A stretch of DNA of 64,000 bases from an uncultured Candidatus Saccharibacteria bacterium (GCA_964513645.1 CAZENF010000002.1:206072-270071); one strand, 5' to 3'; counted from the first letter of the stretch, positions 8,738 through 44,620 are shown. Notes: generated by a model not told the origin, from the letters alone. A program made the numbers and translations.

Positions 8738-8752
8738 CGCATGTCTTTTTTT
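8726..8752 (+). terminator. Rho-independent terminator overlapping the prkA stop codon
   Basis: Stem AGACATGC/GCATGTCT followed by a T7 run. Confidence 0.6.
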
Positions 8753-8795
8753 GTGCTAATTTAAAATCCAGCTTCCTTGTTCCAAAGGGGAAAGC

Positions 8796-28079: not shown

Positions 28080-28595
28080 TTAGTCGGCTTCAAACTTGGT
28101 AATTAGTTCTTTAACACGATACATCTCATGGCTAAGATCTGCGTAAAAATGAGTTCCTGCGCCATTTAGACTCTCTCGAGTAGTCTCCACGAATTTAAGA
28201 TGCTCTTTCAATAATGGCAAAAGCGTAGCTTGACCATATTTTTCAAGAACACGAAGAACATTAAAGCGATCGCTACAATCCGGTATGTCCCTAAGTTCAG
28301 GCCAAGTCAACATCTCCGAGAGTTTTTCTACGTCATTATCATTTAATTCCGGCCCTCTTTCTGCAATATAACCAAGCATTTGATAAAGCAATGAAAGATG
28401 CCCTGGTTCCTCATCAGCCTCTACCTTAGAAGACAGGAGGCCATCAGAATGCAATTTATAAAGTTCTTCGATAATTTGGCTTGGCAACAATGTCTCATAT
28501 TGCTTATATAAATCTCGGGTTGCATCTGCTTGCTTTTGATTACGATCTAACCGCTCACTCGAATCTTGTGCCCAACGTTTAAAAATCTCGTTCAT
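28080..28595 (-). CDS. Acidic helical hypothetical protein (orphan)
   Basis: 171-aa ORF between the tRNA-Ser gene and its partial inverted copy. No family recognised. Confidence 0.45.
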   Translation of the reverse strand: MNEIFKRWAQDSSERLDRNQKQADATRDLYKQYETLLPSQIIEELYKLHSDGLLSSKVEADEEPGHLSLLYQMLGYIAERGPELNDNDVEKLSEMLTWPELRDIPDCSDRFNVLRVLEKYGQATLLPLLKEHLKFVETTRESLNGAGTHFYADLSHEMYRVKELITKFEAD

Positions 28596-29000: not shown

Positions 29001-29738
29001 TCAGCCTCTCGCAATGACCAGACAGATGACTTTTGAAGCGCCGCCGGACTTTAAAACCGAGGCCGCTTCCCTAAGTGTTCCGCCGGTGGTACAGACATCA
29101 TCTACCAACAATATGGTTCTTTTATTTATATCTACATTTTTATTAACGGAGAACTTTCCAGCTAAATTTTTGAGCCGTTCTTCTTTGTTTTGAACGTCTG
29201 CTTGGGGTTTTGTAAATTTATTTCTCATTAAGATTTCATTTTTTACCGTGAGTTGGGTTATCTCGCCGATCATATTGGACAATATTTCGGCCTGATTAAA
29301 ACCTCGCCAATTAAGGCGCCTAAGATGAAGCGGGACCGGGACTACGAGGGGATAGTTTTCGGTCAGGTTAAAATTTTTATCTCTGACAAGGTGGCGGATG
29401 TATTTTTTAAAAAGGGGTCTTAATGATGCGGCAATATCAGGTACCATGCGGTATTTAAGCGTTTTGATAGCTTTTTCGATGAGAGGATTATTGTAATCCG
29501 AAACTATCAACAAATTATCGATCACGGAAAATTCAGTACAATTAAAGCATGTTTTCCCAAGAGGTGTGGCGGTTTTACAGCCAGTGCACTCGAAATTATT
29601 TTTTATAGGAATTAAACCCAGGCACGATTTGCACAGGTATTCTTTCTTATTTTGAGGCGAAAATCTGCCGCAGCCAAGACAGCTTACTGGAAAAATCGTG
29701 TCTGCCAAAAAATTAAGCATTTGCTGGGGATAATTCAT
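29001..29738 (-). CDS. comFC: ComF family protein (ComFC-like phosphoribosyltransferase)
   Basis: N-terminal CxxC x4 zinc finger and C-terminal PRTase motif LLVDDVCTTGGTL. Confidence 0.8.
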   Translation of the reverse strand: MNYPQQMLNFLADTIFPVSCLGCGRFSPQNKKEYLCKSCLGLIPIKNNFECTGCKTATPLGKTCFNCTEFSVIDNLLIVSDYNNPLIEKAIKTLKYRMVPDIAASLRPLFKKYIRHLVRDKNFNLTENYPLVVPVPLHLRRLNWRGFNQAEILSNMIGEITQLTVKNEILMRNKFTKPQADVQNKEERLKNLAGKFSVNKNVDINKRTILLVDDVCTTGGTLREAASVLKSGGASKVICLVIARG

Positions 29739-29872
29739 GATTGTTACATCCGAGCTATGTTATAATAAAGATGGGTAAAATATAGTAATTTTTTGATTTC
29801 TAAGCAAATCAAAAGAATGTCAGGGTTTTGGGACCGGAGATTAACTACGGTTACTTTTAGGTTTTAGATCAA

Positions 29873-30964
29873 ATGCCGTTTAATTTTTTCAAATCAATTA
29901 AACCTGGAGGCAGTTTGGGAATAGACATCGGAACCTCCTCGATAAAAATAGTGGAACTTGATAAAAAGTCAGGACGTTTTTCTTTGTCTAATTACGGCAT
30001 ATTTGAACTTAAGGGTATAGAACAGCCCGGCAGTCCCGACATGGATTCCGAAAAATGGCAAAGTATTTTGAGAATGCCGGATAAAGAAATATCTGAAGGT
30101 ATCATGCAGCTTTTAAAAGCAGCTAAGATGAGTTCTGTCGGTGCGGTCGTTTCAATACCGTCTTTTTCTACCTTCGCGACCGTTATCGAGATGCCTTATG
30201 TCTCTAATGAGGATTTGGCCAGGGCTTTGCCGTTTGAAGCAAAGAAATATGTACCGATACCTCTTGATGAAGTAGTTCTCGATTGGTCAATCGTCGGAGT
30301 CGCGGACGGTACAAAAGCGGAAGCTGGACCCTCGACAGTGGAAGTTTTTCTGGCGGCGGTATCAAAAGAAGAAACAGCCCGTTACCAGACCATAATTAAG
30401 AATGCCAGTCTTGAACTCAAAGCTCTCGAGCTTGAGAACGCTGCCTTGATAAGGGGTCTTTTGGGCAACGACTTGAGTCCGACGGCCGTGGTCAATATCG
30501 GTGGCAGAAGTACCTCAATAATCATAGTTAACCGGGGATACGAAAGGGTGGGTCATAACTATGAGATCGGAGGTTTCGAGATCACCAAAGCAATTTCTCA
30601 ATCGCTTGGGGTAAATCTCGAAAAAGCAGAAGAACTTAAGAGAAAATTCGGTCTTAAAAAAACACAGGAGAATATTATCAACGAATCAATGACCTCGCTA
30701 ATAGATATGATGGTTTTTGAGACCAAAAAAACAATCGCCAATTACGAAGAATCAAAAAAAGAAAAGATTGCAAACATAGTTCTGGTCGGCGGCCTGACCA
30801 ATATGCCTGGTTTTGGCGATTATTTCAAAGAAAAGATCGGCCGCGATGTGGTCATCGGAGATCCGTTTTCGAGGGTGGTTTATCCCAAAGAATTGGACTC
30901 GCTTATGCCTGAATTAAGAAGTACCTTAGCTATCGCAATAGGGTTGGCAATGAGAGAAACATAA
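29873..30964 (+). CDS. pilM: Type IV pilus assembly protein PilM
   Basis: Actin-like ATPase fold, N-terminal GIDIGTSSIK, 363 aa. First gene of the pilMNO operon. Confidence 0.8.
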   Translation: MPFNFFKSIKPGGSLGIDIGTSSIKIVELDKKSGRFSLSNYGIFELKGIEQPGSPDMDSEKWQSILRMPDKEISEGIMQLLKAAKMSSVGAVVSIPSFSTFATVIEMPYVSNEDLARALPFEAKKYVPIPLDEVVLDWSIVGVADGTKAEAGPSTVEVFLAAVSKEETARYQTIIKNASLELKALELENAALIRGLLGNDLSPTAVVNIGGRSTSIIIVNRGYERVGHNYEIGGFEITKAISQSLGVNLEKAEELKRKFGLKKTQENIINESMTSLIDMMVFETKKTIANYEESKKEKIANIVLVGGLTNMPGFGDYFKEKIGRDVVIGDPFSRVVYPKELDSLMPELRSTLAIAIGLAMRET

Positions 30965-31061
30965 GGTGATATAATAAGATTAGATCCCTGTATTAAAATT
31001 TGACCGGAGCACTTATCAGGCAACAAACAGTTCTCCGGCGAAATTTTAGGGAAATAAGCAC

Positions 31062-31613
31062 GTGGACGGTAAAGACGGATTACAATTATTACCTGGAACT
31101 AAGAAAAGACTTGGAATTAAAATCCCGGGTGAGAACCGATTTCTTTACACCGGCAGTGCCGTATTGGGGGCGGTGCTTGTTAGCATGTTCGTTTTGCAGA
31201 ACTATATAACCTCTTTGAAAACCAAGGTTATGGACATAAATGACCAGATAACCGGGGTTGAGCAAAAAAGAAATAAAAAAGATGAAAACGAACTCCGATC
31301 TTTGAAAGACCACCTTATTACAACCTCAACCCTGATCAAACAGCACAGATACTGGACACAGTTGTTTACTTGGTTTGCCAGTACCTTGGAAGGCCAGGTC
31401 CAGATCAGATCGTTGAATGTGAGCACGGCTGGTAAAATTACCGTTTCTGCGATTGCCGCCAATTATACCGTTGTGGCCAAGCAGATTGCAGCTTTTCTTA
31501 CTGACGACAAAATAACGGATTTCAATGTCAGCAAGTTAACTGCGGCCTCAAACGGAAGCGTCGAGTTCGGAATTGAAATGAAGGTCGATCTTTCGAAACT
31601 TATTTATAAATAA
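31062..31613 (+). CDS. pilN: PilN-like pilus assembly protein
   Basis: Single N-terminal TM helix then a coiled-coil. Sits between pilM and pilO. Confidence 0.6.
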   Translation: MDGKDGLQLLPGTKKRLGIKIPGENRFLYTGSAVLGAVLVSMFVLQNYITSLKTKVMDINDQITGVEQKRNKKDENELRSLKDHLITTSTLIKQHRYWTQLFTWFASTLEGQVQIRSLNVSTAGKITVSAIAANYTVVAKQIAAFLTDDKITDFNVSKLTAASNGSVEFGIEMKVDLSKLIYK

Positions 31614-32218
31614 TGGCGAGGAGCATAAAAAATTTAATAGCCTCTGTCCTGATATCGATAAGCGGTTATCTTTTGTGGACCCAGGTTTTGCCGGACTATA
31701 CGATAGTTAACTTTTTAAAAGCGGAAGTAATATCTAAAACAGATGTTTTAAATTCAAGATCGGAAACGATCAAGAAGATACAGAATTTAAGACAGGATAG
31801 TAGCTCTAAATACACAGCACTTCAAAGATTAGCCCTGGTCGTACCGGACAAAAGAAACATCTCCGAACTTATAACGGAACTCGAAGAAATATACTCCAAT
31901 AATGGATTTATTTTGCCTGCAATAAGTTTGGGCGATCTTGAACAGGACCCGACAAGCCAGGTAGCCAAAATAGGTTTTGAAGGCGGAGCGATCGGAACTT
32001 ATTCTCAATTCTTGAGCTTTCTCGGCAGTTTTCAAAAAAGCATAAGACTGTTCGATATAAGCACTATTGATATAGGTTCAGGAACAGGAGTCGGTCTTGG
32101 TGGAGGGAATGATCCCCAGCTTACATTCAATATGAACGGGCAATTTTATTGGTTAAGGCCGGCCGAATCGGTTGTGACCCCCGGCGGGACTTCATCTGGT
32201 GCTAAGGAGGCGCCATAA
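31613..32218 (+). CDS. pilO: PilO-like pilus assembly protein
   Basis: N-terminal TM helix, coiled-coil and ferredoxin-like domain. Sits between pilN and the downstream ATPases. Confidence 0.55.
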   Translation: MARSIKNLIASVLISISGYLLWTQVLPDYTIVNFLKAEVISKTDVLNSRSETIKKIQNLRQDSSSKYTALQRLALVVPDKRNISELITELEEIYSNNGFILPAISLGDLEQDPTSQVAKIGFEGGAIGTYSQFLSFLGSFQKSIRLFDISTIDIGSGTGVGLGGGNDPQLTFNMNGQFYWLRPAESVVTPGGTSSGAKEAP

Positions 32219-32220
32219 AT

Positions 32221-32511
32221 ATGGATAGGATAATAATACAATTTGGCAGAAGTAAAATAATATTATCATTGATAATAATGATAGGTTTGGTTGCCGGATA
32301 TATGTCATACTCTCAAGCTGATGATCCGACGGTCGGTGTTATAAGCAACCAGCCGGCCATAAAAGCCGGAGATTTGGAGTATTTCAATAATTTTAATGTC
32401 GACTTTTCGATACTTGACGACCCTCGTTATAAGGATCTGGAAATCTTCGGAGAAAATCCTGTTGATGCGGGAATTATTGGTGAGCGTAAAAATCCTTTCG
32501 CTCCGCTTTAA
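32221..32511 (+). CDS. Small membrane-anchored protein (PilP-like placeholder)
   Basis: 96 aa with an N-terminal TM helix, between pilO and pilB. Confidence 0.35.
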   Translation: MDRIIIQFGRSKIILSLIIMIGLVAGYMSYSQADDPTVGVISNQPAIKAGDLEYFNNFNVDFSILDDPRYKDLEIFGENPVDAGIIGERKNPFAPL

Positions 32512-32513
32512 AA

Positions 32514-34262
32514 ATGCCGATAAAAATACCAAACACATTAGTTGAGGAATTAATTCGCCAGGGCCTGATGAACAAAAAAGACTCAAAGGCCTACGAGGAT
32601 TTGGCGCGTAAAGAAGATAAAGAACTCGGTCAGATACTTATAGAAAAAGACGTTGTTACTTCTGCCAACCTTCTTCAGATAAAATCACAGCTTTATCATC
32701 TGCCGATCGTAAAACTTGAAGAAGTTCAGATCGACAATAACGCTCTTAAAGAAGTTTCCGAAGATATCGTCGCTTTTTATAAGATAGCCCCCTTCGCCAG
32801 AGAGGGGAATGTACTTAAAGTTGGAGTTCTTAATCCTGAAGACATAGATGCCTTGGAAGCTCTTAAGTTTATCGCTTCCGGACGTGGTTTTACTATCGAT
32901 AAATATGTAATGGATTATAAGGATTTTGAGTCGGTTCTCAGAGGTTACCGTTCTTTATCGGCTGAAGTTGGAAAAGCCCTCGAATCGCTCTCGGATGAGA
33001 TAGAAGAAGAAGCCGTCGGTCCCCAGAAGATAGAAGAAATAACCGCCGAGGGAGCTGTTACCAAAATTGTTGCCTCCATCGTCAAATATGCGGTTGAGTC
33101 GAGAGCGTCTGATATTCATATAGAACCATTCGAAGAGAAGGTTAATGTCCGTTTCAGGGTAGACGGCGTTTTAATCATAGCTTTAACGCTTCCGAAGAAT
33201 GTACACTCGGCTGTTCTGACCAGAATAAAAGTTCTTTCTAACTTAAAAATAGATGAAACTCGCCTTGCTCAGGACGGCCGTTTTTCTACAACTCTGAACA
33301 AAAGAAGGATCGATTTCCGTGTTTCAACTTTTCCGACCAAGAACGGCGAAAAAGTCGTTATGCGTATCTTGGACCCGTTGACGAGCAAGATAGATCTTGT
33401 TGACCTGGGTCTCGAAGGTCGTTCAATGGAGGTTCTTGAGAGGTCTTTGGCGAAACCGTTCGGCAGTGTACTTATAACCGGTCCGACCGGTTCCGGAAAA
33501 TCAACGACCTTGGCCGGTATTTTAAAACGTATGAACAACGAGGAGGTTAACATAGTCACTCTCGAGGATCCTATCGAGTATTTTGTTGAGGGCGTTAACC
33601 AGTCACAGGTCCATGAAGAGATCGGATATACTTTTGCTTCCGGCTTGAGACATATTTTGAGGCAGGACCCGGATATTATCATGGTCGGTGAGATTAGAGA
33701 CCCGGAAACCGCTTCTTTGGCCGTTCAGGCCGCATTGACCGGTCACATTGTTATTTCAACTCTCCACACCAATGATGCCATCGGCGTTGTTCCCAGGTTG
33801 ATAGACATGAAGGTGGAAAAGTATCTTATTCCGCCGACCCTTAACGTGGCTGTTGCTCAAAGACTGTTGCGTCGTCTCTGTTCTGATTGTAAAATTAAGG
33901 ATAAGGCGAACGTTGCCGAAGAGGGGATAATCAACGCCGCTCTTCAGACAATGCCGGAACAGTACAGCAAGCAGCTTTATTCTGCGACCGGTTATGAAAT
34001 TTACCGGCCCAACATCGACAACGCCTGTAAGAAATGCGGCGGCAAGGCTTTTAAAGGCAGGATCGCTATTTTTGAAATGTTGGAAATGAACGACCATCTC
34101 GAAAAAATTATTTTAGCCGATATTTCAGAGGCGTCTTTGAGAGAAGAAGGTAAGCGTCAGGGTATGATAACAATGTTCCAGGACGGTATCCTTAAAACTT
34201 TAAAAGGCGTTTGCTCTCTTGATGAGCTCCTCGAAGTAGCTCAAATGGAGGACAAAGGGTAA
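32514..34262 (+). CDS. pilB: Type IV pilus assembly ATPase PilB (GspE family)
   Basis: Walker A GPTGSGKSTT, the Asp box and a C-terminal tetracysteine motif. Confidence 0.9.
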   Translation: MPIKIPNTLVEELIRQGLMNKKDSKAYEDLARKEDKELGQILIEKDVVTSANLLQIKSQLYHLPIVKLEEVQIDNNALKEVSEDIVAFYKIAPFAREGNVLKVGVLNPEDIDALEALKFIASGRGFTIDKYVMDYKDFESVLRGYRSLSAEVGKALESLSDEIEEEAVGPQKIEEITAEGAVTKIVASIVKYAVESRASDIHIEPFEEKVNVRFRVDGVLIIALTLPKNVHSAVLTRIKVLSNLKIDETRLAQDGRFSTTLNKRRIDFRVSTFPTKNGEKVVMRILDPLTSKIDLVDLGLEGRSMEVLERSLAKPFGSVLITGPTGSGKSTTLAGILKRMNNEEVNIVTLEDPIEYFVEGVNQSQVHEEIGYTFASGLRHILRQDPDIIMVGEIRDPETASLAVQAALTGHIVISTLHTNDAIGVVPRLIDMKVEKYLIPPTLNVAVAQRLLRRLCSDCKIKDKANVAEEGIINAALQTMPEQYSKQLYSATGYEIYRPNIDNACKKCGGKAFKGRIAIFEMLEMNDHLEKIILADISEASLREEGKRQGMITMFQDGILKTLKGVCSLDELLEVAQMEDKG

Positions 34263-34271
34263 TTTACAAAT

Positions 34272-35339
34272 ATGGCGGATTTTAAACAACAGCTCGAAGA
34301 CCTATTATTGAATGCTGCGCAGAACAACGCGTCTGATATCCATTTGTCTCCTGGAAATTATCCGATATTGAGAATAGACGGGCGCCTTATACCGTTGTCC
34401 AATAAAAAGATCCTCGATTCAGAAACTCTCGAGGGTGTTATTTCCATACTTCTTGGCGATGAGAGGAAAGCTCGCTTTGTTTCAGAGAAAGAACTCGATT
34501 TTTCTTATGAATCTGCCCAAGGCGTCCGTTTCAGAGTAAATGTTTATTATACTCAAGGCCGGATGGCGGCAACCCTTCGCCTGGTGCCTGTTCAGATTAA
34601 AAGCGTAGAGGACTTGAATCTCCCTCCGATATTAAAAGTTTTTGGAAAACTTTCCCAAGGTTTTATCTTGGTTGTCGGGCCAAACGGCCACGGTAAATCA
34701 ACGACCCTTGCGGCTTTGGTGGACCTTATTAATAAAGAAAGATCGGAAAAGATAATCACTATCGAGGATCCGATAGAATATATTTTTACACCTGAAAAAA
34801 GCATTATTGACCAGAGAGAGGTTTATCAGGATACATTCTCTTTTCATAAAGCTCTACGCTCCGCTTTCCGCGAGAATGTTAATGTCGTGATGGTAGGAGA
34901 GATGAGGGACTACGAAACTATGAGTGCTGCCGTTACCGCCGCCGAAACAGGCCATCTTGTTTTCGGTTCCCTTCATACAAACAGCGCCTCTCAAACCATC
35001 GAAAGGATAATCGACAGTTTTCCTCCCAACCAGCAAACCCAGATAAGGAATCAGCTGGCAAACACCATTTCTGGTATAATTTCTCAGCGTCTCATCCCAA
35101 GAATAAAAGGCGGTCTCATTCCTGCAGTCGAGGTTATGATCGCAACTCCGGCCATCAGAACCCTTATCCGGGACAACCGTCCTCGCCAGCTCGACCTGGT
35201 CATCGAAACCAGCCAGGAAACGGGTATGATATCTCTTAACCGTTCTTTGGCTGACCTCGTCCGGTTAAAAGAAATAAGTTTGGAAAGGGCCCAGTTCTAT
35301 TCACAGAACCCTTCGGAACTCAAAGAGTTAATACGTTAG
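34272..35339 (+). CDS. pilT: Twitching motility/retraction ATPase PilT
   Basis: GPNGHGKSTT Walker A, 355 aa, the PilT size class. Confidence 0.85.
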   Translation: MADFKQQLEDLLLNAAQNNASDIHLSPGNYPILRIDGRLIPLSNKKILDSETLEGVISILLGDERKARFVSEKELDFSYESAQGVRFRVNVYYTQGRMAATLRLVPVQIKSVEDLNLPPILKVFGKLSQGFILVVGPNGHGKSTTLAALVDLINKERSEKIITIEDPIEYIFTPEKSIIDQREVYQDTFSFHKALRSAFRENVNVVMVGEMRDYETMSAAVTAAETGHLVFGSLHTNSASQTIERIIDSFPPNQQTQIRNQLANTISGIISQRLIPRIKGGLIPAVEVMIATPAIRTLIRDNRPRQLDLVIETSQETGMISLNRSLADLVRLKEISLERAQFYSQNPSELKELIR

Positions 35340-35396
35340 GTTATAGGTAAGAAGCCGGGATTTATTAGCTGCTTACCGATAAGCTAATTTTATAAT

Positions 35397-36608
35397 TTGG
35401 CAGAATTTAGTTATCAGGCTAAAACTCGGGAAGGCCATATTGTTCAAGGGATAATCGATTCCCCGAACCAGAATCTGGCCGTCGATATCCTTCATGGCAA
35501 GGGTTATATTATATTGTCTCTCGAATCCAAATCGTCGCTAAGCACTATGGATATCTCGCTCGGTTTTCTTTCCCGGCCGAACAGCAAAGACCTCGCGATA
35601 TTCACCCGCCAGTTATCAACCCTTATTGATGCAGACATGCCTTTAAGCGAAGGTCTAAGAATTCTTGCGAAACAGGTGGATAAAGCATCTCTCCGTACGA
35701 TAATTGCGGAAATCGCCGAAGCGGTTGAAGGAGGTTCTTTGCTTTCAGCCGCCTTGTCCCAATATCCGAAATTATTCTCAGATTTCTATGTTAAGCTCGT
35801 TCAATCCGGAGAAATATCCGGAAAACTTCATGATTCTCTTTTATATCTTGCTGATTATGTCGAGCACAGCCAGGAAATAAATTCAAAAATAAGAGGTGCG
35901 ATGGCTTATCCTTCTTTTATCATATTTTCTTTAGTCGTCGTTACTGTAATTATGACCACTTTTGTCTTACCTCAATTGCTGTCAATATTTAAAGAGGTTG
36001 GCGCGACAGATTTGCCGATCACTACCCGGACCCTTATTTGGGTAACAGACTTTGTTAACGGCAATCTCCTGTTTTTGTCGATATTTTCTTTCTTTTCAAT
36101 ATCAATAATAGTTTATTTTATAAGAACACCCGAGGGAAAAGAATGGCTTGATGTGGTCAAGATCAGATTTCCCCAGCTTGGAACGATAGTCCGGAATCTC
36201 TACCTTGCCAGAATGGCGGAAAGTCTTACCACTCTTATGAAATCAGGCATCCCCATCTTAGACGCTCTTAAAATTACCGGAGAATTAGTGGGTAATTCGG
36301 TTTTTAAGAAGATAGTTTTAGATGCAGAAGAAAGCGTTAAGGCAGGAGGAAGTATTTCAGCGGCTCTGACCAAATATAAAGAGATTCCGCCGCTTTTTTC
36401 TTCGATGATAGCAATAGGGGAGAGAACAGGTAAGATGGAGTTTATCTTAGAGCATGTGTCTAAATTTTATAAATCCGAATCAGAAGCATCCATCGACAGT
36501 ATCTCTCAGATAGTTGAGCCTGCCCTTATCTTGCTTCTCGGTGTTGCGGTCGCCGGATTGGTTTCGAGCATACTTTTGCCTATATATAACGTTGTCAGTA
36601 GCGTCTAA
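35397..36608 (+). CDS. pilC: Type IV pilus platform protein PilC (GspF family)
   Basis: Duplicated GspF domains with three TM helices. 403 aa. Confidence 0.85.
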   Translation: MAEFSYQAKTREGHIVQGIIDSPNQNLAVDILHGKGYIILSLESKSSLSTMDISLGFLSRPNSKDLAIFTRQLSTLIDADMPLSEGLRILAKQVDKASLRTIIAEIAEAVEGGSLLSAALSQYPKLFSDFYVKLVQSGEISGKLHDSLLYLADYVEHSQEINSKIRGAMAYPSFIIFSLVVVTVIMTTFVLPQLLSIFKEVGATDLPITTRTLIWVTDFVNGNLLFLSIFSFFSISIIVYFIRTPEGKEWLDVVKIRFPQLGTIVRNLYLARMAESLTTLMKSGIPILDALKITGELVGNSVFKKIVLDAEESVKAGGSISAALTKYKEIPPLFSSMIAIGERTGKMEFILEHVSKFYKSESEASIDSISQIVEPALILLLGVAVAGLVSSILLPIYNVVSSV

Positions 36609-36636
36609 GATAATTATCGGATGTGGATATCTTGTT

Positions 36637-36664
36637 TTGCTAAGAATTACAGGCGCTGTATAAT
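36637..36664 (+). promoter_or_regulatory. Sigma70-like promoter of the major pilin gene, with a 110-nt leader
   Basis: -35 TTGCTA, 16-nt spacer, -10 TATAAT. Confidence 0.45.
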
Positions 36665-36776
36665 TAATCGTAGGTCCATAAAACTTCGTTTCTAAATATA
36701 AAGTTTAAGTTCTCTATCAGTTGCTTTTTAGTTTTTATCCTTAAAGCTAAAGACCAAGTGATAGAAGCTAAATAAA

Positions 36777-37349
36777 GTGTCGATTATAAAAAAACTAACT
36801 AAAAACTCTTCAAAGGGTTTTACTTTGGTCGAATTGCTGGTCGTTATCGCTATCATCGGTGTTTTAGCCACCTTGATATTGCTTCAGTTGGGTGCTGCTC
36901 GTCAAAAAGCGAGAGACGCCAAGAGAGTTGCTGATATCAACCAGGTCAGGTCCGCAGTCGAATTGTACTTCGACGATAACAGCGGTCACTATCCGAACGT
37001 CCAGACCCTTAACGATAACCTCGTTAACGTAGGTAAATATATGACCCTATTGCCGGTTGACCCTCTTGCTGCCGGAGGTTGTGGTGCCGGTGCAACTGCC
37101 AACTATAACGGTACAGGAGGTTGTTACGGCTATGCATGGAGCCCGAACGTGAATCCAGGTAAATTTCATCTCTGGGCCGAACTCGAGAGATACTCAACCG
37201 CCCTCACCGCTGATATTGACTTCAACTCTTTGGGCGCATCCCCGGTCTTTAATGGAGCTGCTGTGAACGGAGCCAGTGAAGCCCAGCCTTGTGCTGATAC
37301 GAACGTCCAGAACCAGAACTGTGTCTATGATGTCGGTGTGACTCAATAA
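36777..37349 (+). CDS. pilA: Type IV major pilin (prepilin)
   Basis: Class III signal KGFTLVELLVVIAIIGVLA, Glu+5 and a C-terminal Cys pair. Confidence 0.9.
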   Translation: MSIIKKLTKNSSKGFTLVELLVVIAIIGVLATLILLQLGAARQKARDAKRVADINQVRSAVELYFDDNSGHYPNVQTLNDNLVNVGKYMTLLPVDPLAAGGCGAGATANYNGTGGCYGYAWSPNVNPGKFHLWAELERYSTALTADIDFNSLGASPVFNGAAVNGASEAQPCADTNVQNQNCVYDVGVTQ

Positions 37350-37361
37350 GTTCTAATATTA

Positions 37362-37390
37362 AAAATCCCCCTTCTTGGGGGATTTTTAAT
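37362..37390 (+). terminator. Rho-independent terminator of the pilin transcript
   Basis: Stem ATCCCCC/GGGGGAT followed by T5. Confidence 0.7.
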
Positions 37391-37409
37391 TAGATGATAT
37401 CATCAGTTC

Positions 37410-38168
37410 ATGAATTATCTTTACCTCCTAATGGTAATTTTTATCGGAACCTGCTTAGGAAGCTTTATGAGTGTCCTTGTTTCAAGACTGGATGAGAAAG
37501 AGGGGATATTAACCGGACGGTCAGAATGTCCTAAATGCCTGGTTAAATTAAAATGGTATGACTTGGTGCCTCTACTTAGCTTTTTTGCTTTGGGTGGAAA
37601 GTGCCGTAAGTGTAAAGAAAAAATATCTTTTATTTATCCGGCGATGGAGTTGTCGGTTGCTTTTTCTTTTGCCTCCTATCTCGTTATCAACGGCTTTTAC
37701 CTTAGTTTAGCGGATATATACAGTTTAATGATGATATTTATACTCCTTATCTTATTTTTCTTTGACTTTACTTACTATATTTTGCCAGATAAGATAATAT
37801 TTCCGGGCATAGCTATATCAGTACTATATTCTGTATTTTTTGAGCCGAACTATTTCTTCGAGCGTCTTTTAACTGGCTTGGGCTTGGCGGGTTTTTTTGC
37901 TATTATGTATGTAATATCTCACGGTGAATGGATTGGTTTTGGGGACGTTAAGCTCGCTTTGTTTGTTGGCCTGTTGACGGGATTTTTATTGGGCATGTTT
38001 TCAATGCTTACTGCGATCTGGGTGGGTGCTTTTTGGGGCATCGGTATGATGTTAATGAGCAGGGCCAGCATGAAAACGGCGCTTCCTTTCGGTTGTTTTA
38101 TATGTTCTACAACCATCATAAGTATAATATTTCATGGATACATCACTTTATCCCTCACTAAATTATAA
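37410..38168 (+). CDS. pilD: Prepilin peptidase PilD (A24 family)
   Basis: N-terminal CPKC...CRKC zinc motif and eight TM helices. Confidence 0.85.
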   Translation: MNYLYLLMVIFIGTCLGSFMSVLVSRLDEKEGILTGRSECPKCLVKLKWYDLVPLLSFFALGGKCRKCKEKISFIYPAMELSVAFSFASYLVINGFYLSLADIYSLMMIFILLILFFFDFTYYILPDKIIFPGIAISVLYSVFFEPNYFFERLLTGLGLAGFFAIMYVISHGEWIGFGDVKLALFVGLLTGFLLGMFSMLTAIWVGAFWGIGMMLMSRASMKTALPFGCFICSTTIISIIFHGYITLSLTKL

Positions 38169-38190
38169 AAAAAAGACTTCTGAATATTTG

Positions 38191-38553
38191 ATGGCGTTTG
38201 TCCTTATGTTTCTTGTCGGGGCGGGTGTTTTGTGGGTCAGGGGATTTTTAAATTTAGATAAGGCGCGTCTGGACCTCGATATCAATGGTCGGAAAAGATC
38301 TTTTGAGGGCGAGGTTACTCGGAATATGACCGTTATTGACGTCATCCAGGCCGCGGCTTTGGCCGGCAATATCTCTCTTGCGTTGGTTAAGGACGAAAAC
38401 GGCGGATTTTTTATCCGCTCCATTGACGGATATTCTTCCGTGACCAGTACCAAAAAACTTGATATTTATTTAAATTCTTCAAAAATAGACCCGGCTAAGA
38501 TATCCTCTACTATCGTCAGGAGCGGAGATAAAATAATTATAACCACCGAATAA
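38191..38553 (+). CDS. Membrane-anchored hypothetical protein in the pilus operon
   Basis: N-terminal TM helix and a beta-rich C-terminus. Start moved to the ATG that does not overlap pilD. Confidence 0.4.
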   Translation: MAFVLMFLVGAGVLWVRGFLNLDKARLDLDINGRKRSFEGEVTRNMTVIDVIQAAALAGNISLALVKDENGGFFIRSIDGYSSVTSTKKLDIYLNSSKIDPAKISSTIVRSGDKIIITTE

Positions 38554-38559
38554 TGAAAA

Positions 38560-39246
38560 ATGACCAGTAATCCCAAAAAAACAAGTAATAAACTTATCCG
38601 CACAGCCGGCTTTACTTTGATGGAGGTTTTGGTGGTGATGAGTATTTCTTCTTTTATTGTTATAACCCTTCTCAGCAATGTCTTAAGGAACAGGGTTAGT
38701 TTAAGTGAAACCGCGAGGGTTATTGTGGCGGATATAAGAACCGCCCAGGCAAATGCTTTGGCCTCTAAACAATATAACAACCTTAACCGCTGCGGCTATG
38801 GCCTTCATATGCTGACTAAGAGCCAAGCTTCAACTGCCGAACCTTTCGGCCGTACGTATTATTTGTGGACAACAGGCGCAAGTCCACCAAGTTGTCCTCC
38901 TTCAGGTGGCAATGCAACCTACCAGCCGTCGGACTCAGGGGTTGTTACTAACAGGATACTGGATTCGAGACTTGAGATGTGTGATCCGCCTTCAGGACAA
39001 AATAGCTGTGCTTCGGGTACCGGCACCAGCGGGTCTTTTAATGACATATACTTCTCAAATACAAGCGGAACCATCTTTGTGAATAATAAATCCTGCCCCA
39101 TCAATAATGCCGCGCAAGGATATTCAGAGATACTTATCCGCAAAATAGGAGCAACCTGCCCGTCTTCAAGTTGCTTATACATATGCGTAATGGCTAATGG
39201 CAATATCTTCAATAGTGCCAATCCTTGTACCGCGGTTACCTGTTAA
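38560..39246 (+). CDS. Type IV minor pilin (pseudopilin), Cys-rich C-terminus
   Basis: Prepilin motif AGFTLMEVLVVMSI. Confidence 0.75.
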   Translation: MTSNPKKTSNKLIRTAGFTLMEVLVVMSISSFIVITLLSNVLRNRVSLSETARVIVADIRTAQANALASKQYNNLNRCGYGLHMLTKSQASTAEPFGRTYYLWTTGASPPSCPPSGGNATYQPSDSGVVTNRILDSRLEMCDPPSGQNSCASGTGTSGSFNDIYFSNTSGTIFVNNKSCPINNAAQGYSEILIRKIGATCPSSSCLYICVMANGNIFNSANPCTAVTC

Positions 39247-39249
39247 TAA

Positions 39250-39759
39250 ATGATCATGCACAAAGAACCCCATAGAATTCGTGAAAAAGGGACTACGCTT
39301 GTGGAAGCGATGGTTTCCGTGCTTATTTTAAGCATCGGTATCATCCCTTCATTCTCTATTATTTTGTTGGCGAACAGCTTTTCCTCAACCATAAAAAATA
39401 ATCTTATTGCTTCCAACCTTGCCCAGGAGGGTCTTGAGGTTGTCAGAGCTCTCCGGGATAATAACCGCTTTAATAACCGTGCCTTTGATTCAGGCCTTGC
39501 CGCCGGAACTTATACAGTTGATTGGAATTCAAATGCCCTTTTGGTGGTGGGAACCAACCCCTCCCTCTTATTGAATAATGTGGGTTTATACAATTATTCC
39601 AGCGGCACAGATACTGGTTTTCACCGGAGAATAATAATCGTCAAAGACCCCTTAACTTCCTGTAATTGCGAACTCCGCATAACTTCGGAAATAACCTGGA
39701 ACGAAAGAGGGAAAAGCAAACTCATTACCGCCGAATCACATTTATATAATTGGTTTTAA
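39250..39759 (+). CDS. Type IV minor pilin, PilV-like
   Basis: Prepilin motif KGTTLVEAMVSVLIL. Confidence 0.7.
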   Translation: MIMHKEPHRIREKGTTLVEAMVSVLILSIGIIPSFSIILLANSFSSTIKNNLIASNLAQEGLEVVRALRDNNRFNNRAFDSGLAAGTYTVDWNSNALLVVGTNPSLLLNNVGLYNYSSGTDTGFHRRIIIVKDPLTSCNCELRITSEITWNERGKSKLITAESHLYNWF

Positions 39760-40328
39760 TTATGTCCAGAAAAGTTTTAACTAAATTTTATTTACGAAAT
39801 AATGAAAAAGGATTTACTCTTGTTGAATTTATTACAACTATGTTTGTCTTTTCTGTCATGGCGATTATAGTAGCCGGTATTTGGGTCAAGGCCGTTCAGA
39901 TCGAGCGTAGAGATTTTTCCGCTCAAATCATCGAAGAGAATACCTTAGCTGTTTTGGATACTATGGCTAAAGAGATAAGAGTTAGTACGATTACCAATCA
40001 GGACAATAATTGTTCAGCTGCGCCTTCTGCAAGCTTAACTATGACGTTCAATGACTCTTTAGGGGGTTCGGGCACTCTGGTCTATAGTCTTGTGGGCGGG
40101 GTTGTCCAAAGAACCTATGGCGGCGTAACTTATCAGATGAGCTCTAATGATATCGTTTTTAATTCTCTGGGTTTCTGTGTTTCCGGCTCCTCGACCAGCC
40201 CTTATGGAAATGATGCAACCAGGGTCACCATCATTGCATCAATATCAAATACAACTGGAAATATCGTCACCGTAAATACCCAGACAGCCGTCACGATTCG
40301 GGATGTTAGTGCCGAGGTACAAAATTAG
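39750..40328 (+). CDS. Type IV minor pilin, PilW-like
   Basis: Prepilin motif KGFTLVEFITTMFVF. Confidence 0.7.
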   Translation: MVLIMSRKVLTKFYLRNNEKGFTLVEFITTMFVFSVMAIIVAGIWVKAVQIERRDFSAQIIEENTLAVLDTMAKEIRVSTITNQDNNCSAAPSASLTMTFNDSLGGSGTLVYSLVGGVVQRTYGGVTYQMSSNDIVFNSLGFCVSGSSTSPYGNDATRVTIIASISNTTGNIVTVNTQTAVTIRDVSAEVQN

Positions 40329-40380
40329 CATTGACCAAATGTTAACTGATCTGAAAAAAGAAAATCAGAGAGGGTCCATA

Positions 40381-41418
40381 ATGCTTTACACGCTTTTAAT
40401 ATTGATCTCGTTGATATTATTATCCGGGACACTTCTAAAGATATTTATCCCAAAGCTCCATGCAGTCAATGAGACCGTTTATTCAACTGACGCTCTTTAT
40501 GCAGCGGATAGCGGTACGGAGTGGTGTCTTTATGAGAATAACGTCAATCCGATCAAACTAGCGATGCCTTTTGATGAAGGTTCTGGTACGACTGCTAATG
40601 ATTATTCTGGTTATGGCAATAACGGCACCCTAACTAACGGCCCTACATGGGTAGCCGGCAAATACGTTAACGGTATAAGTTTTGATGGAGTTAATGATTA
40701 TGTAAGGCTGGGTAATGTATTAAACTGGCCGTCAACAAATAGCATGACCATATCTGCTTGGATAAATCGTAGGAATGTAACTAATAATGCAACAATAATT
40801 TCAAAAAAGACCAGCAACTCTTCTACCACCCCAGGGTATTCTCTATTTCAATGGTCCGCAGCTAATGGCGGAAACACTTGTTTCTATATATCTGACGGTG
40901 TAGGTCAATACGAAACTTGTACGCCCGATAATTCAACTATAGATCTAAATCAGTGGCATTTTATTGCTGTAACCTTTGATCGAGTCAACGGAAGGGCCGG
41001 CTCTTCTATATATATTGATGGAGTAAATTCCGAACAGTCAAGTTATGAAGTGGGAAATCCGAGCACTCTTGGCGCTGTTAGCAATAATGAAAGTCTTTGT
41101 ATCGGTACTGCGCCTGTTGGTGCCGGATCATGTACCACGACCCAGCTACAGTTCCCGGGCACTATTGATAATGTCAGGATTTATGCCAAAGCCCAATCTC
41201 AAGCTGAGATCCAAGCCGATATGAATACACCTGTTCCAACATCAATCCCACCCGTCAGGAGTCCAGTGGCAAGTCCCATGATGACCAACGGCTCAGTCTT
41301 TTCTATTTATTCACCGGCCTCTTCATCGACCCCATCAAATTGTACAGACTATAGCTTAAATTATAGGACCGTTGGAACATACAGAGGTATTTCTAGGTCT
41401 TTGCAGGTTCACCAATAA
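40381..41418 (+). CDS. PilX-like pilus-associated protein with LamG (concanavalin A-like lectin) domain
   Basis: N-terminal TM anchor then a LamG-like block (GNNGTLTNGPTWVAGKYVNGISFDGVNDYV...ISAW). Start set at the internal ATG with an RBS. Confidence 0.6.
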   Translation: MLYTLLILISLILLSGTLLKIFIPKLHAVNETVYSTDALYAADSGTEWCLYENNVNPIKLAMPFDEGSGTTANDYSGYGNNGTLTNGPTWVAGKYVNGISFDGVNDYVRLGNVLNWPSTNSMTISAWINRRNVTNNATIISKKTSNSSTTPGYSLFQWSAANGGNTCFYISDGVGQYETCTPDNSTIDLNQWHFIAVTFDRVNGRAGSSIYIDGVNSEQSSYEVGNPSTLGAVSNNESLCIGTAPVGAGSCTTTQLQFPGTIDNVRIYAKAQSQAEIQADMNTPVPTSIPPVRSPVASPMMTNGSVFSIYSPASSSTPSNCTDYSLNYRTVGTYRGISRSLQVHQ

Positions 41419-41463
41419 TATAGAGGTGCCAGTTCTAAAGCTATATTACTCACAATAATAATC

Positions 41464-41492
41464 TTGTTAGGATAAGACTATTTTTGTATAAT
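41464..41492 (+). promoter_or_regulatory. Sigma70-like promoter
   Basis: -35 TTGTTA, 17-nt spacer, -10 TATAAT (context TTTTTGTATAAT). Confidence 0.4.
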
Positions 41493-41540
41493 AGAAACAA
41501 ATAATAAGCGGACTATCCTCTAGATAATCCGTATAAATAA

Positions 41541-44500
41541 ATGATTAAACGTTTACACTCGTTTTCTGCGATAGCGGTTTTAGTGGCATTACTGGGAAGC
41601 GCTTTAAGTGCTTATGCTCATGGGCTGTTTCCCCAAATCGTTCTTTCCGCAAGTACAGGCACGGAAACGACCTATATATTTCAAGTTAATAATTCTAATG
41701 ATGATGCAAACGAGGATGGTGTAAATTATTCATCATCCAACCCGGAACAGTGGTTGGGTAACGGAGCATCGACCGATAAAAGTTATCTCGGCCTGCGCTT
41801 TAATGGTGTTGCAATTCCTAAAAACGCTGTTATTACTGCTGCATATCTTGATCTTTACTCTACTCAAGACCAATGGATTAATTTAAGCGTTCAGATTGGA
41901 ATGGAAGCAATCGGTAATAGTGATCCGTTTTCTGCTACTCGCCGAATGTCTCAGCTTGTATTGACCTCCACTAAAGTAGACAACAACTCCAATGTTAAAT
42001 GGTCGGCTAATGGCTGGTATAGTTTTAGCGATATAACCTCGGTTGTCCAAGAGCTGGTTAATAGAAGTGATTGGCAGTCTGGCAATTCGGTAGCTATTGT
42101 CTTAAAGGGGACAGGAACTCAGTATGGCCGTAAATTCATTGCTAGTTTTGATAGCAATCCTGGTTCTGCACCACGTTTTGTCGTACACTATATGGTTGCT
42201 GGTTCTTCTACTCCAACGCCACTTCCTACTCAAATACCAACTTCTACTCCGATACCAACCCCAATTGCTTCCCCAACTCCAAGTATTATTCCAACATCAC
42301 CTCCTTCCCCATCTCCTGTAGTGACTCCCATTCCAACTCCCATTCCTACTCCTATTTTTACCTCAACCCCTATTCCAACTCCAACTTCCCTTGATAAAAC
42401 AGCTCCTTCCATTTATTCAGTCGCAGCTACAAATCCGACCCCTTTTTCTATGACCATAAACTGGACTACTAATGAGCCGGCAGATTCTCAGGTCGAATTT
42501 TGTCTTACTTCGAGTCATTGCAATAACAATACTCCGATCATATCCTCTCTTCAGCTTAACCATTCTATTAACCTTTTTGGTTTAACTCCTCAAACCCGTT
42601 ATTATTATTGGGTTAAATCTAGGGATGCAGTTGGCAATTTAGCAATTTCATATAGAAGGTATTTTGTGACCTCAAGTTCAATTACACCAACACCTGTTCC
42701 AACCCCAACTCCAGTCGCAGGAGATACGAAACCACCCATCATCTCGAATATTTTGGTTACAAATATTGGACAATTTTCAGCCAATATTTCATGGACAACT
42801 GATGAAGCATCAGATGGCCAGGTAGAGTTTATGAACCCATGTCCTTCAACTGGTTGTCTCACCCCCGTTGTTTCAACTCTTGTAACATCTCATCTGATAA
42901 ATATTTTTAACCTTAGCCCCGGGACAACTTATCACTATGTAATAAAATCTAAGGATGCAAGCGGGAATTTATCCGTTTCTTTAAATCAATATTTCACTAC
43001 TCTTTCTCCAACACCCACTCCTACCCCAGTTCTTATGCCGACTCCTGCTCCAATTCTTACACCCACGCCCATGCCTTCCACAGCTCCTTCAGCCGACGTT
43101 TATCCCGAATCAATGTCAATGCATGCCTGGCGGGTTGGTGGTAAAAATGCACCTAACCCTCTCTATGACAAGTGTGATGACGGTACGGATATTGTTTTAG
43201 TCCACAATCAGTACTATGTAATTGGTTATGACGGAATTAAATATCCAACCTGGCATCCTCCAGTGGTCACAAACCCCATAACCGGGGTAGGCAAGTGTTA
43301 CTTTGGTCATGAACATGGCACTGATCCTCAAACCTACGTCCATTGGAATGATATTGTCCAGCATTTCGGCAAAGATATTAATGGTGACGGAATCATTTCA
43401 GCTATGATTATCAACCCATTGACCGGCCAGATAACTCCGGGCGATCGAGCTGGCATTCCTTTCGGTATCGCCAATGAACATATGGACCAATATTACAACC
43501 AGGAAAACCGAGATTCAGTCTTTGTCAGACATGAAGACCATGTCGGCCATAAAATAGAAGTTGCTAATTATGAATCCGACACTTTAAATAACAGCACCCA
43601 TACCATGGCCCAGCTTCCTGGTACGACCGGGATCAATGTACCCTACTACAAAGCAGGTTCGGAAACCTATCAGCCGACGGGTATTGTCTGTACTCATCTC
43701 CATAAATTCCATCAAGGCACCCATTCACCTGATGCGGTTAGAAACAATCTTCATGAGGTCATTTTCCATTCAACTTGCACCAGTGTAGATACCAATGGCA
43801 TCAACGCCCCGGCCTATTATCCAAGCAATACGGTCATATTAACCGGAATGATGGCTTTCGGTAATCCAGGTGAATATCTGCGCTTCTGCTTCAACGATCG
43901 AATGACTAAGGTTTGCGCAGATGGTAAAAATCCTGATGGAACCTGTGTAATCAATGACCCACTAATCAGCAAACTGCCTAAGGCAATTTACAGCGATACT
44001 CTCGGCCGAAACATGGTCGATAAATACTGTCTCGATAATTTTAGTAAATTAAATCCGGGTCTTAACTACTTTAATCCATATGAACTCTGGCAGGGTGATC
44101 TTCGGATTCAGAAGGCGGACGGAGATATGTTGGCTGAACATGGTCGACAATGGGATGTCTTAGATCCTGTCAGATTCATTGACTCAACCTCAACCACCGG
44201 CATAAGCTACAATTCGAGCCAATGTGCTTCTGGCGGAGCCTTCAGTAATATTCAGTATATCGGTGGTTGCAACTCCAGAACCCAGAATATACCTTGGGAT
44301 TCACCACTCTCTGGGTTCAGAGGTTTAAAGAGGACAACTTATTTCGGTCGCAATCGTGTTTCTAATCCTGGGGGCCCTGATGTTTGGTGGACCGATCCTC
44401 TGGGCGGTAATGCAAGTCCAACCCAATTTACATCCGGTCTCAAACAGAGAATCTCACCGGTTGAGGCCGATATCCAGAAAGTCCAATATCGTATCCAGCA

Positions 44501-44588
44501 GCTTTATGGCCCAGATAACTTCCTTAATGACCGCGCTATTCAGAGAACCTTTAATGACGGAGGGGGGACAGTCCATGCACCGAATTAG
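41541..44588 (+). CDS. Large secreted protein. Signal peptide, N-terminal beta domain, two fibronectin-III-like repeats separated by Pro/Thr-rich linkers, and a 500-aa His-rich C-terminal domain.
   Basis: 1015 aa. Signal peptide ending AYAHG. Repeated xxINWTTxExxDxQVEF modules. PTPTP linkers. HEHG and HEDHVGH clusters. Confidence 0.6.
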   Translation: MIKRLHSFSAIAVLVALLGSALSAYAHGLFPQIVLSASTGTETTYIFQVNNSNDDANEDGVNYSSSNPEQWLGNGASTDKSYLGLRFNGVAIPKNAVITAAYLDLYSTQDQWINLSVQIGMEAIGNSDPFSATRRMSQLVLTSTKVDNNSNVKWSANGWYSFSDITSVVQELVNRSDWQSGNSVAIVLKGTGTQYGRKFIASFDSNPGSAPRFVVHYMVAGSSTPTPLPTQIPTSTPIPTPIASPTPSIIPTSPPSPSPVVTPIPTPIPTPIFTSTPIPTPTSLDKTAPSIYSVAATNPTPFSMTINWTTNEPADSQVEFCLTSSHCNNNTPIISSLQLNHSINLFGLTPQTRYYYWVKSRDAVGNLAISYRRYFVTSSSITPTPVPTPTPVAGDTKPPIISNILVTNIGQFSANISWTTDEASDGQVEFMNPCPSTGCLTPVVSTLVTSHLINIFNLSPGTTYHYVIKSKDASGNLSVSLNQYFTTLSPTPTPTPVLMPTPAPILTPTPMPSTAPSADVYPESMSMHAWRVGGKNAPNPLYDKCDDGTDIVLVHNQYYVIGYDGIKYPTWHPPVVTNPITGVGKCYFGHEHGTDPQTYVHWNDIVQHFGKDINGDGIISAMIINPLTGQITPGDRAGIPFGIANEHMDQYYNQENRDSVFVRHEDHVGHKIEVANYESDTLNNSTHTMAQLPGTTGINVPYYKAGSETYQPTGIVCTHLHKFHQGTHSPDAVRNNLHEVIFHSTCTSVDTNGINAPAYYPSNTVILTGMMAFGNPGEYLRFCFNDRMTKVCADGKNPDGTCVINDPLISKLPKAIYSDTLGRNMVDKYCLDNFSKLNPGLNYFNPYELWQGDLRIQKADGDMLAEHGRQWDVLDPVRFIDSTSTTGISYNSSQCASGGAFSNIQYIGGCNSRTQNIPWDSPLSGFRGLKRTTYFGRNRVSNPGGPDVWWTDPLGGNASPTQFTSGLKQRISPVEADIQKVQYRIQQLYGPDNFLNDRAIQRTFNDGGGTVHAPN

Positions 44589-44589
44589 A

Positions 44590-44620
44590 AAAAATAGCCG
44601 TTTAAAACGGCTATTTTTTG
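44590..44620 (+). terminator. Rho-independent terminator
   Basis: Stem ATAGCCG/CGGCTAT followed by T6. Confidence 0.7.

Follow-up and report, generated by a model that had tools for sequence, protein, structure and literature searches.

Does a giant secreted protein belong to the type IV pilus whose genes stand directly before its own? This question is raised by a 64,000-nucleotide stretch of DNA (the window) from an uncultured bacterium labelled Candidatus Saccharibacteria (GCA_964513645.1 CAZENF010000002.1:206072-270071), in which a pilus gene cluster is followed by a gene for a protein of 1015 amino acids (aa) with a His-rich C-terminal domain (the C-domain). A sequence-only reading had joined this protein with the LamG lectin-domain protein encoded just before it, suggesting that the two may act at the pilus tip as an adhesin or enzyme module that attaches the cell to a host or surface or captures DNA. 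Our analysis favors a different explanation. The segment 29001-41418 would be a type IVa-like pilus cluster that a Yanofskybacteria-like bacterium (Parcubacteria/Patescibacteria) has inherited vertically. A LamG/concanavalin A (ConA)-like module has been taken up inside the fourth minor pilin of this cluster, in this genome alone. The 1015-aa gene appears from its sequence context as a monocistronic unit of its own, inserted specifically in this lineage between the pilus cluster and ligA, and its product is most likely a Sec-secreted, metal-dependent, glycan-active enzyme targeted by a carbohydrate-binding module (CBM), not a part of the pilus. We put the probability of this explanation as a whole at roughly 0.6.

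We investigated the same locus in relatives of the window's organism. A metagenome scan with PilC gave 80 loci, with PilC identities of 50-77%, which were searched with every protein of the window's cluster. The common gene order is comF (minus strand), pilM, pilN, pilO, a gene for a 96-aa protein, pilB, pilT, pilC, pilA, pilD, orf139, minor pilins 1-3, a fourth small gene and ligA. Thirty-four of the 80 loci, from Yanofskybacteria-like relatives, extend to ligA, and in all 34 ligA comes directly after the fourth minor pilin. The distance from the end of minor pilin 3 to the start of ligA is 399-1357 bp in these loci (399-734 bp in 32 of them) and 4351 bp in the window. The N-terminal domain (N-domain), the pair of fibronectin type III-like (FN3) modules and the C-domain of the 1015-aa protein have no match in any of the 80 PilC-selected loci. 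Exact look-ups of the window's 1015-aa and LamG proteins gave no contig, and the one contig reached through a cluster member (L163) is the window's own organism, reassembled with 100% identity, and is not independent evidence.

The 1015-aa gene (41541-44588, plus strand) also has the signs of an independent transcription unit, because a promoter-like site lies before it (TTGTTA-17-TATAAT, 41464-41492, plus strand, 10 of 12 consensus matches, within the 122-bp intergenic gap) and a terminator-like, perfect 15-nt inverted repeat between an A run and a T run directly follows it (44589-44619, no strand assigned). These calls, like those at pilA described below, are consensus or pattern matches. 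The sites before pilA and before the 1015-aa gene are the two best plus-strand promoter-like sites in an 18-kb region, in which the total of promoter-like matches is no greater than in shuffled sequence. The protein starts with a Sec-type signal peptide (aa 1-26, MIKRLHSFSAIAVLVALLGSALSAYA, followed by HG), with predicted cleavage between AYA and HG, and ends in GGGTVHAPN. A prepilin-like or sortase-like signal, which the sequence-only reading had proposed to look for, was not found: read from the sequence, the protein has no class III prepilin signal, no LPXTG motif and no hydrophobic C-terminal tail.

We then investigated the gene neighborhoods of C-domain homologs, taking 82 loci (81 distinct places) with up to 10 kb on each side; of 475 genome loci, the best 80 were inspected. 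PilB, PilC, PilT, PilM, PilD and the LamG pilin were found within 10 kb in none of the 82 loci, and one locus has an orphan pilin gene. The closest homolog (79% identity) adjoins a CBM_4_9 protein and a dockerin protein. When the neighbors of the 81 loci were clustered, no informative partner gene was conserved across clades. The second-largest neighbor cluster consists of antisense shadow open reading frames (ORFs) in high-GC genomes and is an artefact; the P-type ATPase neighbors are a mixture of heavy-metal (HMA) and Ca/Mg types; one Burkholderiales clade alone has a topoisomerase, an alpha/beta hydrolase and a 691-aa protein as neighbors; and an 800-aa neighbor shared by three loci is ClpB or ClpC. 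In the locus L012 (7897-14037), three tandem paralogs combine a dockerin with the His-rich domain, the third with an extra inserted domain, and are followed by the orphan pilin gene. No pilus machinery is nearby, and we treat this as a coincidence. Tandem duplicates of the C-domain gene are also found in L003 and L065.

These observations bear directly on the proposal that the LamG protein and the 1015-aa protein act together at the pilus tip. The two genes are neighbors on one strand, both are lineage novelties beside minor pilins, and both products have carbohydrate-binding-type modules, all of which would suit a common tip module. However, the 1015-aa protein has a Sec signal and not a class III signal, its gene has a promoter-like site and a terminator of its own and is found in none of the 34 relatives with an intact pilus-ligA junction, pilus machinery is near none of the 82 homolog loci, and the homologs are dockerin-fused proteins or lipoproteins. 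On this evidence we regard the tip module as improbable, and a place for the 1015-aa protein in it is not supported. A looser cooperation, in which the C-domain protein and the lectin-tipped pilus of this organism act on one host or matrix glycan, seems to us a similarly long shot. The sequence-only reading had named, as the outcome that would speak against it, a C-domain matching a well-known enzyme family unrelated to pili in a gene that is not syntenic with pilus genes in relatives; the gene is indeed not syntenic with them, but the C-domain matches no known enzyme family.

The origin of the gene can be approached through its relatives. The closest named relatives of the window's LigA are Candidatus Yanofskybacteria (69-75% identity), which places the host, a tiny bacterium of the groundwater type, in the Parcubacteria group of Patescibacteria; several taxon labels of metagenome-assembled genomes in the genome collection look unreliable. 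Unlike this Yanofskybacteria-like host genome, the closest named C-domain homologs belong to Woesebacteria (Microgenomates). This, together with the absence from the 34 relatives, suggests a lineage-specific gain of the C-domain gene, possibly by transfer. Around the gene we found no flanking direct repeats or insertion scars except the repeats of the Pro/Thr linkers. The GC skew falls to -0.21 at 42001-44000 and is positive in most other intervals; this drop coincides with the C-rich codons of the Pro/Thr linkers and with degenerate 12-36-nt repeats, and is thus not a sign of foreign DNA.

We then investigated the 1015-aa protein itself. Behind the signal peptide, and all on the plus strand, it has an N-terminal beta-jelly-roll resembling DNRLRE/CBM96 (aa 27-219, 41619-42197), a first Pro/Thr linker (42198-42392), two FN3-like modules (aa 285-375 and 394-487, 42393-43001; PF16656 E = 1.3e-13, PF00041 E = 4e-7) that are 40-45% identical to each other, a second Pro/Thr linker (43002-43079) and the 502-aa His-rich C-domain (43080-44585), which belongs to an uncurated family. 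The motifs HEHG and HEDHVGH stand at aa 590 and aa 664. The sequence-only reading had placed the two FN3-like modules, the Pro/Thr linkers and a 500-aa C-terminal domain with these two motifs correctly. The order of CBM, Pro/Thr linker, FN3 and catalytic module is that of multimodular secreted carbohydrate-active enzymes, including cellulosomal ones, and dockerin, CBM_4_9, PA14 and beta-helix modules are partners among the homologs. In contrast to such enzymes, the presumed catalytic module of the 1015-aa protein can be assigned to no family in CAZy, Pfam or PDB and lacks a fold match, and the protein has no match to dockerin (PF00404).

The N-domain is the part shared with homologs that match DNRLRE. 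The model NF033679 (DNRLRE) aligns over its full length to the window's N-domain with E = 5e-3 and 16.8 bits against a cutoff of 34, and reaches E values of up to 5e-9 in seven of 51 homologs. The AlphaFold model of the N-domain has a predicted local distance difference test score (pLDDT) of 93.9, and Foldseek matched it, with a probability of 1.0, to the chondroitin-sulfate-binding CBM of PDB 8wab (TM score 0.57-0.64) and to the alginate-binding CBM96 of PDB 7vbo (TM score 0.50-0.53). An identity of about 30% between CBM96 and DNRLRE domains has been reported (PMC9971899). The predicted fold is a beta-jelly-roll like that of CBM96/DNRLRE (7VBO, PMC9971899) and of the 8WAB module, whereas the sequence identity is about 14% and the NCBIfam score lies below the cutoff. 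The N-domain would bind a polysaccharide, likely an acidic one, and the FN3 modules and Pro/Thr linkers would serve as spacers.

The C-domain is found far beyond this genome. We identified 1652 homologs at E≤1e-3 in a collection clustered at 90% identity and 475 confirmed loci in species-representative genomes. Among 50%-identity representatives there are 2825, 1185 and 308 matches at E≤1e-3, 1e-10 and 1e-30, respectively; the profile used here spans the N-domain too, and these counts include some proteins with the N-domain only. The source labels include Woesebacteria, Dojkabacteria, Doudnabacteria, Saccharibacteria, Gemmatimonadota, Burkholderiales, Lysobacterales, Actinomycetota, Chloroflexia and Acidobacteria. 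The partner modules among the homologs are dockerin, EF-hand, PA14, CBM_4_9, DNRLRE, beta-helix, FG-GAP and RTX, and 12 of 51 homologs have a dockerin. In the candidate phyla radiation (CPR), the C-domain is joined either to the N-domain (18 of the 82 loci) or to a dockerin or EF-hand, while in diderm bacteria the homologs are bare lipoproteins of 420-500 aa.

Across 66 proteins from several phyla, six His residues (H555, H572, H590, H592, H667 and H738 in full-length numbering) and four Cys residues (C545, C586, C717 and C746) are 100% conserved; C895 and C910 are conserved at 98%, and H664, H670, H724 and H1012 at 89-98%. About 60 columns of the C-domain, including these ten His and further Arg, Glu, Asp, Asn, Tyr and Trp positions, are at least 92% conserved across phyla at an overall identity of about 30%. 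Nevertheless, no Pfam-A or NCBIfam model covers the C-domain of the window's protein or the core of 51 homologs, a profile search of PDB sequences with the C-domain gave no match at E≤10, and a literature search for the motifs HEDHVGH, FGHEHG and TWHPP found no papers. The AlphaFold model of the C-domain is confident (pLDDT 91.3, predicted TM score 0.92), and Foldseek found no match for it in PDB or BFVD (best E = 0.29, TM score≤0.15). The sequence-only reading, which had given this domain no function, had suggested such a structure prediction. Two candidate families were rejected. A purple acid phosphatase was suggested by PF16656 and a GHEH motif, but PF16656 covers the FN3-like modules only and the C-domain model has no match to a metallophosphatase fold. 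A zincin or metzincin was considered as well, but HEDHVGH, read from the sequence, does not fit HExxH or HExxHxxGxxH.

We read the C-domain as an enzyme because it takes the catalytic position behind the CBM, linker and FN3 modules, because its fusion partners are carbohydrate-related and because its conservation resembles that of an active site. The domain would be stabilized by disulfides and act on the substrate, and its approximately ten conserved His residues would most plausibly form a metal center. The enzyme activity and the glycan substrate that we infer here come from domain fusions and conservation only. On the other hand, the absence of a match to any catalytic family or fold would also suit a metal-stabilized binding or structural domain of the adhesin or surface-layer kind, by which the cell or the protein is fixed to a surface polymer; FG-GAP, RTX, dockerin, PA14 and DNRLRE modules are also found in adhesins and S-layer proteins (PMC9971899). 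Against such a role, about 60 nearly invariant columns at an overall identity this low are typical of active sites rather than of binding surfaces, and in CBM-linker architectures the C-domain is always at the position of the catalytic module. We therefore consider a non-catalytic C-domain unlikely.

The place of the gene beside comF, the pilus cluster and ligA could also be explained by a secreted nuclease or phosphoesterase that serves DNA uptake and nucleotide salvage in a reduced genome. Extracellular nucleases and phosphoesterases often have His-rich metal sites, the genes on either side are related to DNA, and modules of the CBM96 type, which the N-domain matches, bind polyanions. However, the C-domain has no likeness in sequence or fold to any nuclease or phosphatase, and its homologs lack a DNA-related neighborhood. 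Furthermore, ligA adjoins the pilus cluster in all relatives without the 1015-aa gene, so the neighborhood of this gene is uninformative. A nuclease or phosphoesterase is thus very improbable. Returning to the glycan-active enzyme, we propose, tentatively and at somewhat less than even odds, that the C-domain founds a new family of extracytoplasmic metalloenzymes with an unseen fold and a center of approximately ten His residues, which occurs in at least eight phyla and has been recruited in CPR to CBM-bearing or dockerin-bearing secreted proteins. One example would be an enzyme of a new class that cleaves or oxidizes polysaccharides.

We then investigated the LamG protein encoded before the 1015-aa gene. 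This protein (40303-41418, plus strand) stands at the PilX/GspK position as minor pilin 4, has QRG before SIMLY at its N-terminus and no Glu5, and contains a LamG/ConA-like lectin module with a Pro-rich linker (aa ~90-328, 40570-41286, plus strand; PF13385 E = 3e-25 at aa 128-304). The orthologs in the 34 relatives are only 117-145 aa long and align to aa ~20-90 and aa ~329-371 of the window's protein, and the inserted segment of about 235 residues is absent from all of them. They share a conserved Q(R/K)G-S-I with a hydrophobic helix behind it, the motif AADSxxEWC, and a C-terminal Cys followed downstream by YRTVGTYRGISRSL. The window's protein thus combines a pilin moiety with a module of the ConA-like superfamily, the PF13385 match lying between the two pilin-homologous segments. 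The comparison supports the LamG protein itself as the fourth minor pilin. The sequence-only reading had listed three minor pilins and a membrane-anchored LamG protein; the three pilins with N_methyl motifs and the LamG module hold, but it took the fourth minor pilin for a separate protein and overlooked orf139.

GspK/PilX-type tip subunits occupy the fourth minor pilin position, have Gly at -1 and lack Glu5, and GspK also carries an additional domain within its pilin body. The window's protein is like them in being the fourth of four minor pilins, with Gly at -1, no Glu5 and a domain inserted in the pilin body. It differs from GspK in that the inserted domain is LamG and not the GspK alpha-domain, and the family evidence is a single weak PilX_N match (PF14341, E = 0.024) in one ortholog (L090), which is the sole profile support. 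In the window's protein, no N_methyl match exceeds the threshold, and neither PilX_N nor T2SSK gives a match.

A signal-anchored membrane lectin that is not a pilin and is encoded after the minor pilins by chance would be consistent with these missing profile matches and with the lack of Glu5. However, a small ortholog fills the fourth minor pilin slot in 34 of 34 relatives, and the invariant G-S-I followed by a hydrophobic helix is the GspK/PilX-type pattern, which is Glu5-less too. In addition, a second relative (L154, 13062-14330) has grafted a C-terminal Gly_rich_2 domain of about 290 aa (PF21722 E = 2e-24) onto the same scaffold in place of LamG, indicating that the fourth minor pilin accepts different modules in different lineages. 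We give the membrane lectin a low probability. The conserved fourth slot and the pilin-like segments on both sides of the lectin insert instead make the LamG protein a plausible tip-exposed minor pilin, and this part of the sequence-only proposal thus survives.

A characterized parallel is Streptococcus sanguinis PilC, a minor pilin with a ConA-like lectin module that binds glycans and is modeled at the pilus tip (PMC9934059). The likeness lies in a minor pilin with a module of the ConA/LamG superfamily, expected in the tip complex and in glycan binding, and is drawn at the superfamily level. While the PilC module is grafted at the C-terminus, the window's module lies inside a very small pilin with pilin segments on both sides. 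As in S. sanguinis PilC, the pilus tip would display a lectin. The public annotation of the LamG gene (P0121, 345 aa) starts at Met27 and cuts off G24-S25-I26, which are invariant in the orthologs; its start is probably too far downstream, the true start being upstream, at the ATG at 40303 or at codon 13.

Several observations weigh against the explanation that we prefer. Neither sequence nor fold links the C-domain to a known relative, so that the word enzyme depends on conservation and fusion partners. By sequence, the CBM96-like assignment of the N-domain is weak here (E = 5e-3), and the N-domain fold also matches prodomains of BMP/TGF-beta. The fourth minor pilin lacks Glu5 and has a single weak PilX_N match among its orthologs. 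Finally, the two genome-specific novelties, the LamG module and the 1015-aa gene, lie side by side, and a functional link between them could escape a comparison of synteny, as this arrangement exists in one organism only.

The rest of the pilus cluster was examined gene by gene. Every ORF named in the sequence-only reading was located where it had been placed, and its claim of a complete type IV pilus locus is borne out by family matches and by the gene order conserved in 34 relatives. The comF gene, for a ComF/GntX family phosphoribosyltransferase-like protein (29001-29738; TIGR00201 E = 1e-27, PF00156), lies on the minus strand. It is divergent from pilM, and has the same placement upstream of pilM in most relatives. 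All the following genes are on the plus strand: pilM (29873-30964; PF11104 E = 3e-38); a pilN-like gene for a bitopic protein (31062-31613), assigned by position (PF05137 E = 0.09; 31-56% identity in relatives); a pilO-like gene (31613-32218; PF04350 E = 3e-4, below the cutoff) whose position is conserved in relatives; and a gene for a 96-aa membrane-anchored protein (32221-32511) with no family match and 31-75% identity in relatives. Thus comF, pilM, pilN and pilO, which had been listed as a simple succession, are all present, but comF faces away from pilM, PilN is a positional assignment and the PilO match is weak.

Next comes pilB, encoding the extension ATPase (32514-34262; PF00437 E = 5e-118), with an N-terminal MshEN domain (PF05157 E = 8e-11). 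MshEN-type domains bind cyclic di-GMP in other systems. It is followed by pilT for the 355-aa retraction ATPase (34272-35339; PF00437 E = 9e-42; 62-94% identity in relatives) and pilC for the platform protein (35397-36608; two copies of PF00482, E = 3e-54). The major pilin gene pilA (36777-37349; PF07963 (N_methyl) E = 4.5e-9, TIGR02532) encodes a class III signal with KG before FTLVE. The promoter and terminator that had been claimed for pilA were recovered as pattern matches: a promoter-like site in the intergenic gap before the gene (TTGCTA-16-TATAAT, 36637-36664, plus strand, 10 of 12 consensus matches) and a hairpin with a CCCCC/GGGGG stem and a T run (37366-37381, plus strand). The gene for the prepilin peptidase/N-methyltransferase, pilD (37410-38168; PF06750 (A24_N_bact) E = 1e-26, PF01478 E = 7e-11), overlaps at its end by 35 nt with the start of orf139 (38134-38553), which lies between pilD and the minor pilins. 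The 139-aa membrane-anchored product of orf139 has no family match and is 27-44% identical to its counterparts in most relatives; it is probably an unrecognized component of the pilus cluster. Minor pilins 1-3 have N_methyl motifs and class III signals: minor pilin 1 is GspH/ComGD-like (38560-39246; PF07963 E = 1.6e-4, with ComGD and GspH models below cutoffs), minor pilin 2 is PilV/GspI-like (39250-39759; TIGR02523 E = 1e-9, below the cutoff, and PF07963) and minor pilin 3 is ComGF/GspJ-like (39750-40328; PF07963 E = 1.8e-6). In the relatives L109, L115 and L117, nothing within 10 kb downstream of pilC matches pilA, pilD or the minor pilins, indicating that the cluster is split in some lineages.

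The components expected of a type IVa-like system are found here: the extension ATPase and platform protein (PilB and PilC), a prepilin peptidase with a major pilin bearing a class III signal, and PilT with PilM/N/O, of which PilN and PilO are weak or positional assignments. No secretin gene was found among the ORFs of the pilus cluster. The ComGC, ComGD, ComGE and ComGF models scored 19-35 bits against cutoffs of 49-80, which falls short of a ComG-type competence pilus. As PilM/N/O and PilT are present and all ComG matches are far below their cutoffs, the machinery is type IVa-like rather than ComG-like. The label of a competence-type pilus is therefore loosely right for the conserved comF neighbor but not for the machinery, and this neighbor is the sole hint that the pilus may take up DNA. 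According to established type IV pilus biology, PilB acting on the PilC platform, held by PilM/N/O, would polymerize PilD-processed PilA, the four minor pilins would prime assembly and finish at the tip, and PilT would retract the fiber. Monoderm and CPR bacteria, among them Saccharibacteria (PMC11623550), have type IVa-like pili with the same gene set (PilB, PilT, PilC, PilD, PilM/N/O, major and minor pilins). Compared with these, the window's cluster comes from a Yanofskybacteria-like lineage and has two additional conserved small genes (for the 96-aa protein and orf139).

Elsewhere in the window, we found a 510-aa cytochrome b-like protein (53327-54859, minus strand; PF00033 E = 6e-24) and a PrkA and DUF444 gene pair (6740-9983, plus strand), both unusual for a reduced Patescibacteria genome. 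Four ORFs have no Pfam match at E≤1e-5: 14038-15603 (plus strand, 521 aa), 24236-26098 (minus strand, 620 aa), 26103-27707 (minus strand, 534 aa) and 28080-28595 (minus strand, 171 aa). Three of these stand together as a block, directly upstream of comF.

The pilus cluster by itself is ordinary for Patescibacteria. A fourth minor pilin that accepts modules would offer episymbionts a simple route to change what their pili bind. The C-domain represents a large multi-phylum family with a confident predicted structure, no fold match and no curated model, and in CPR it sits where catalytic modules sit. The characterization of a single member would provide an annotation for well over a thousand sequence clusters, and new chemistry might come to light.

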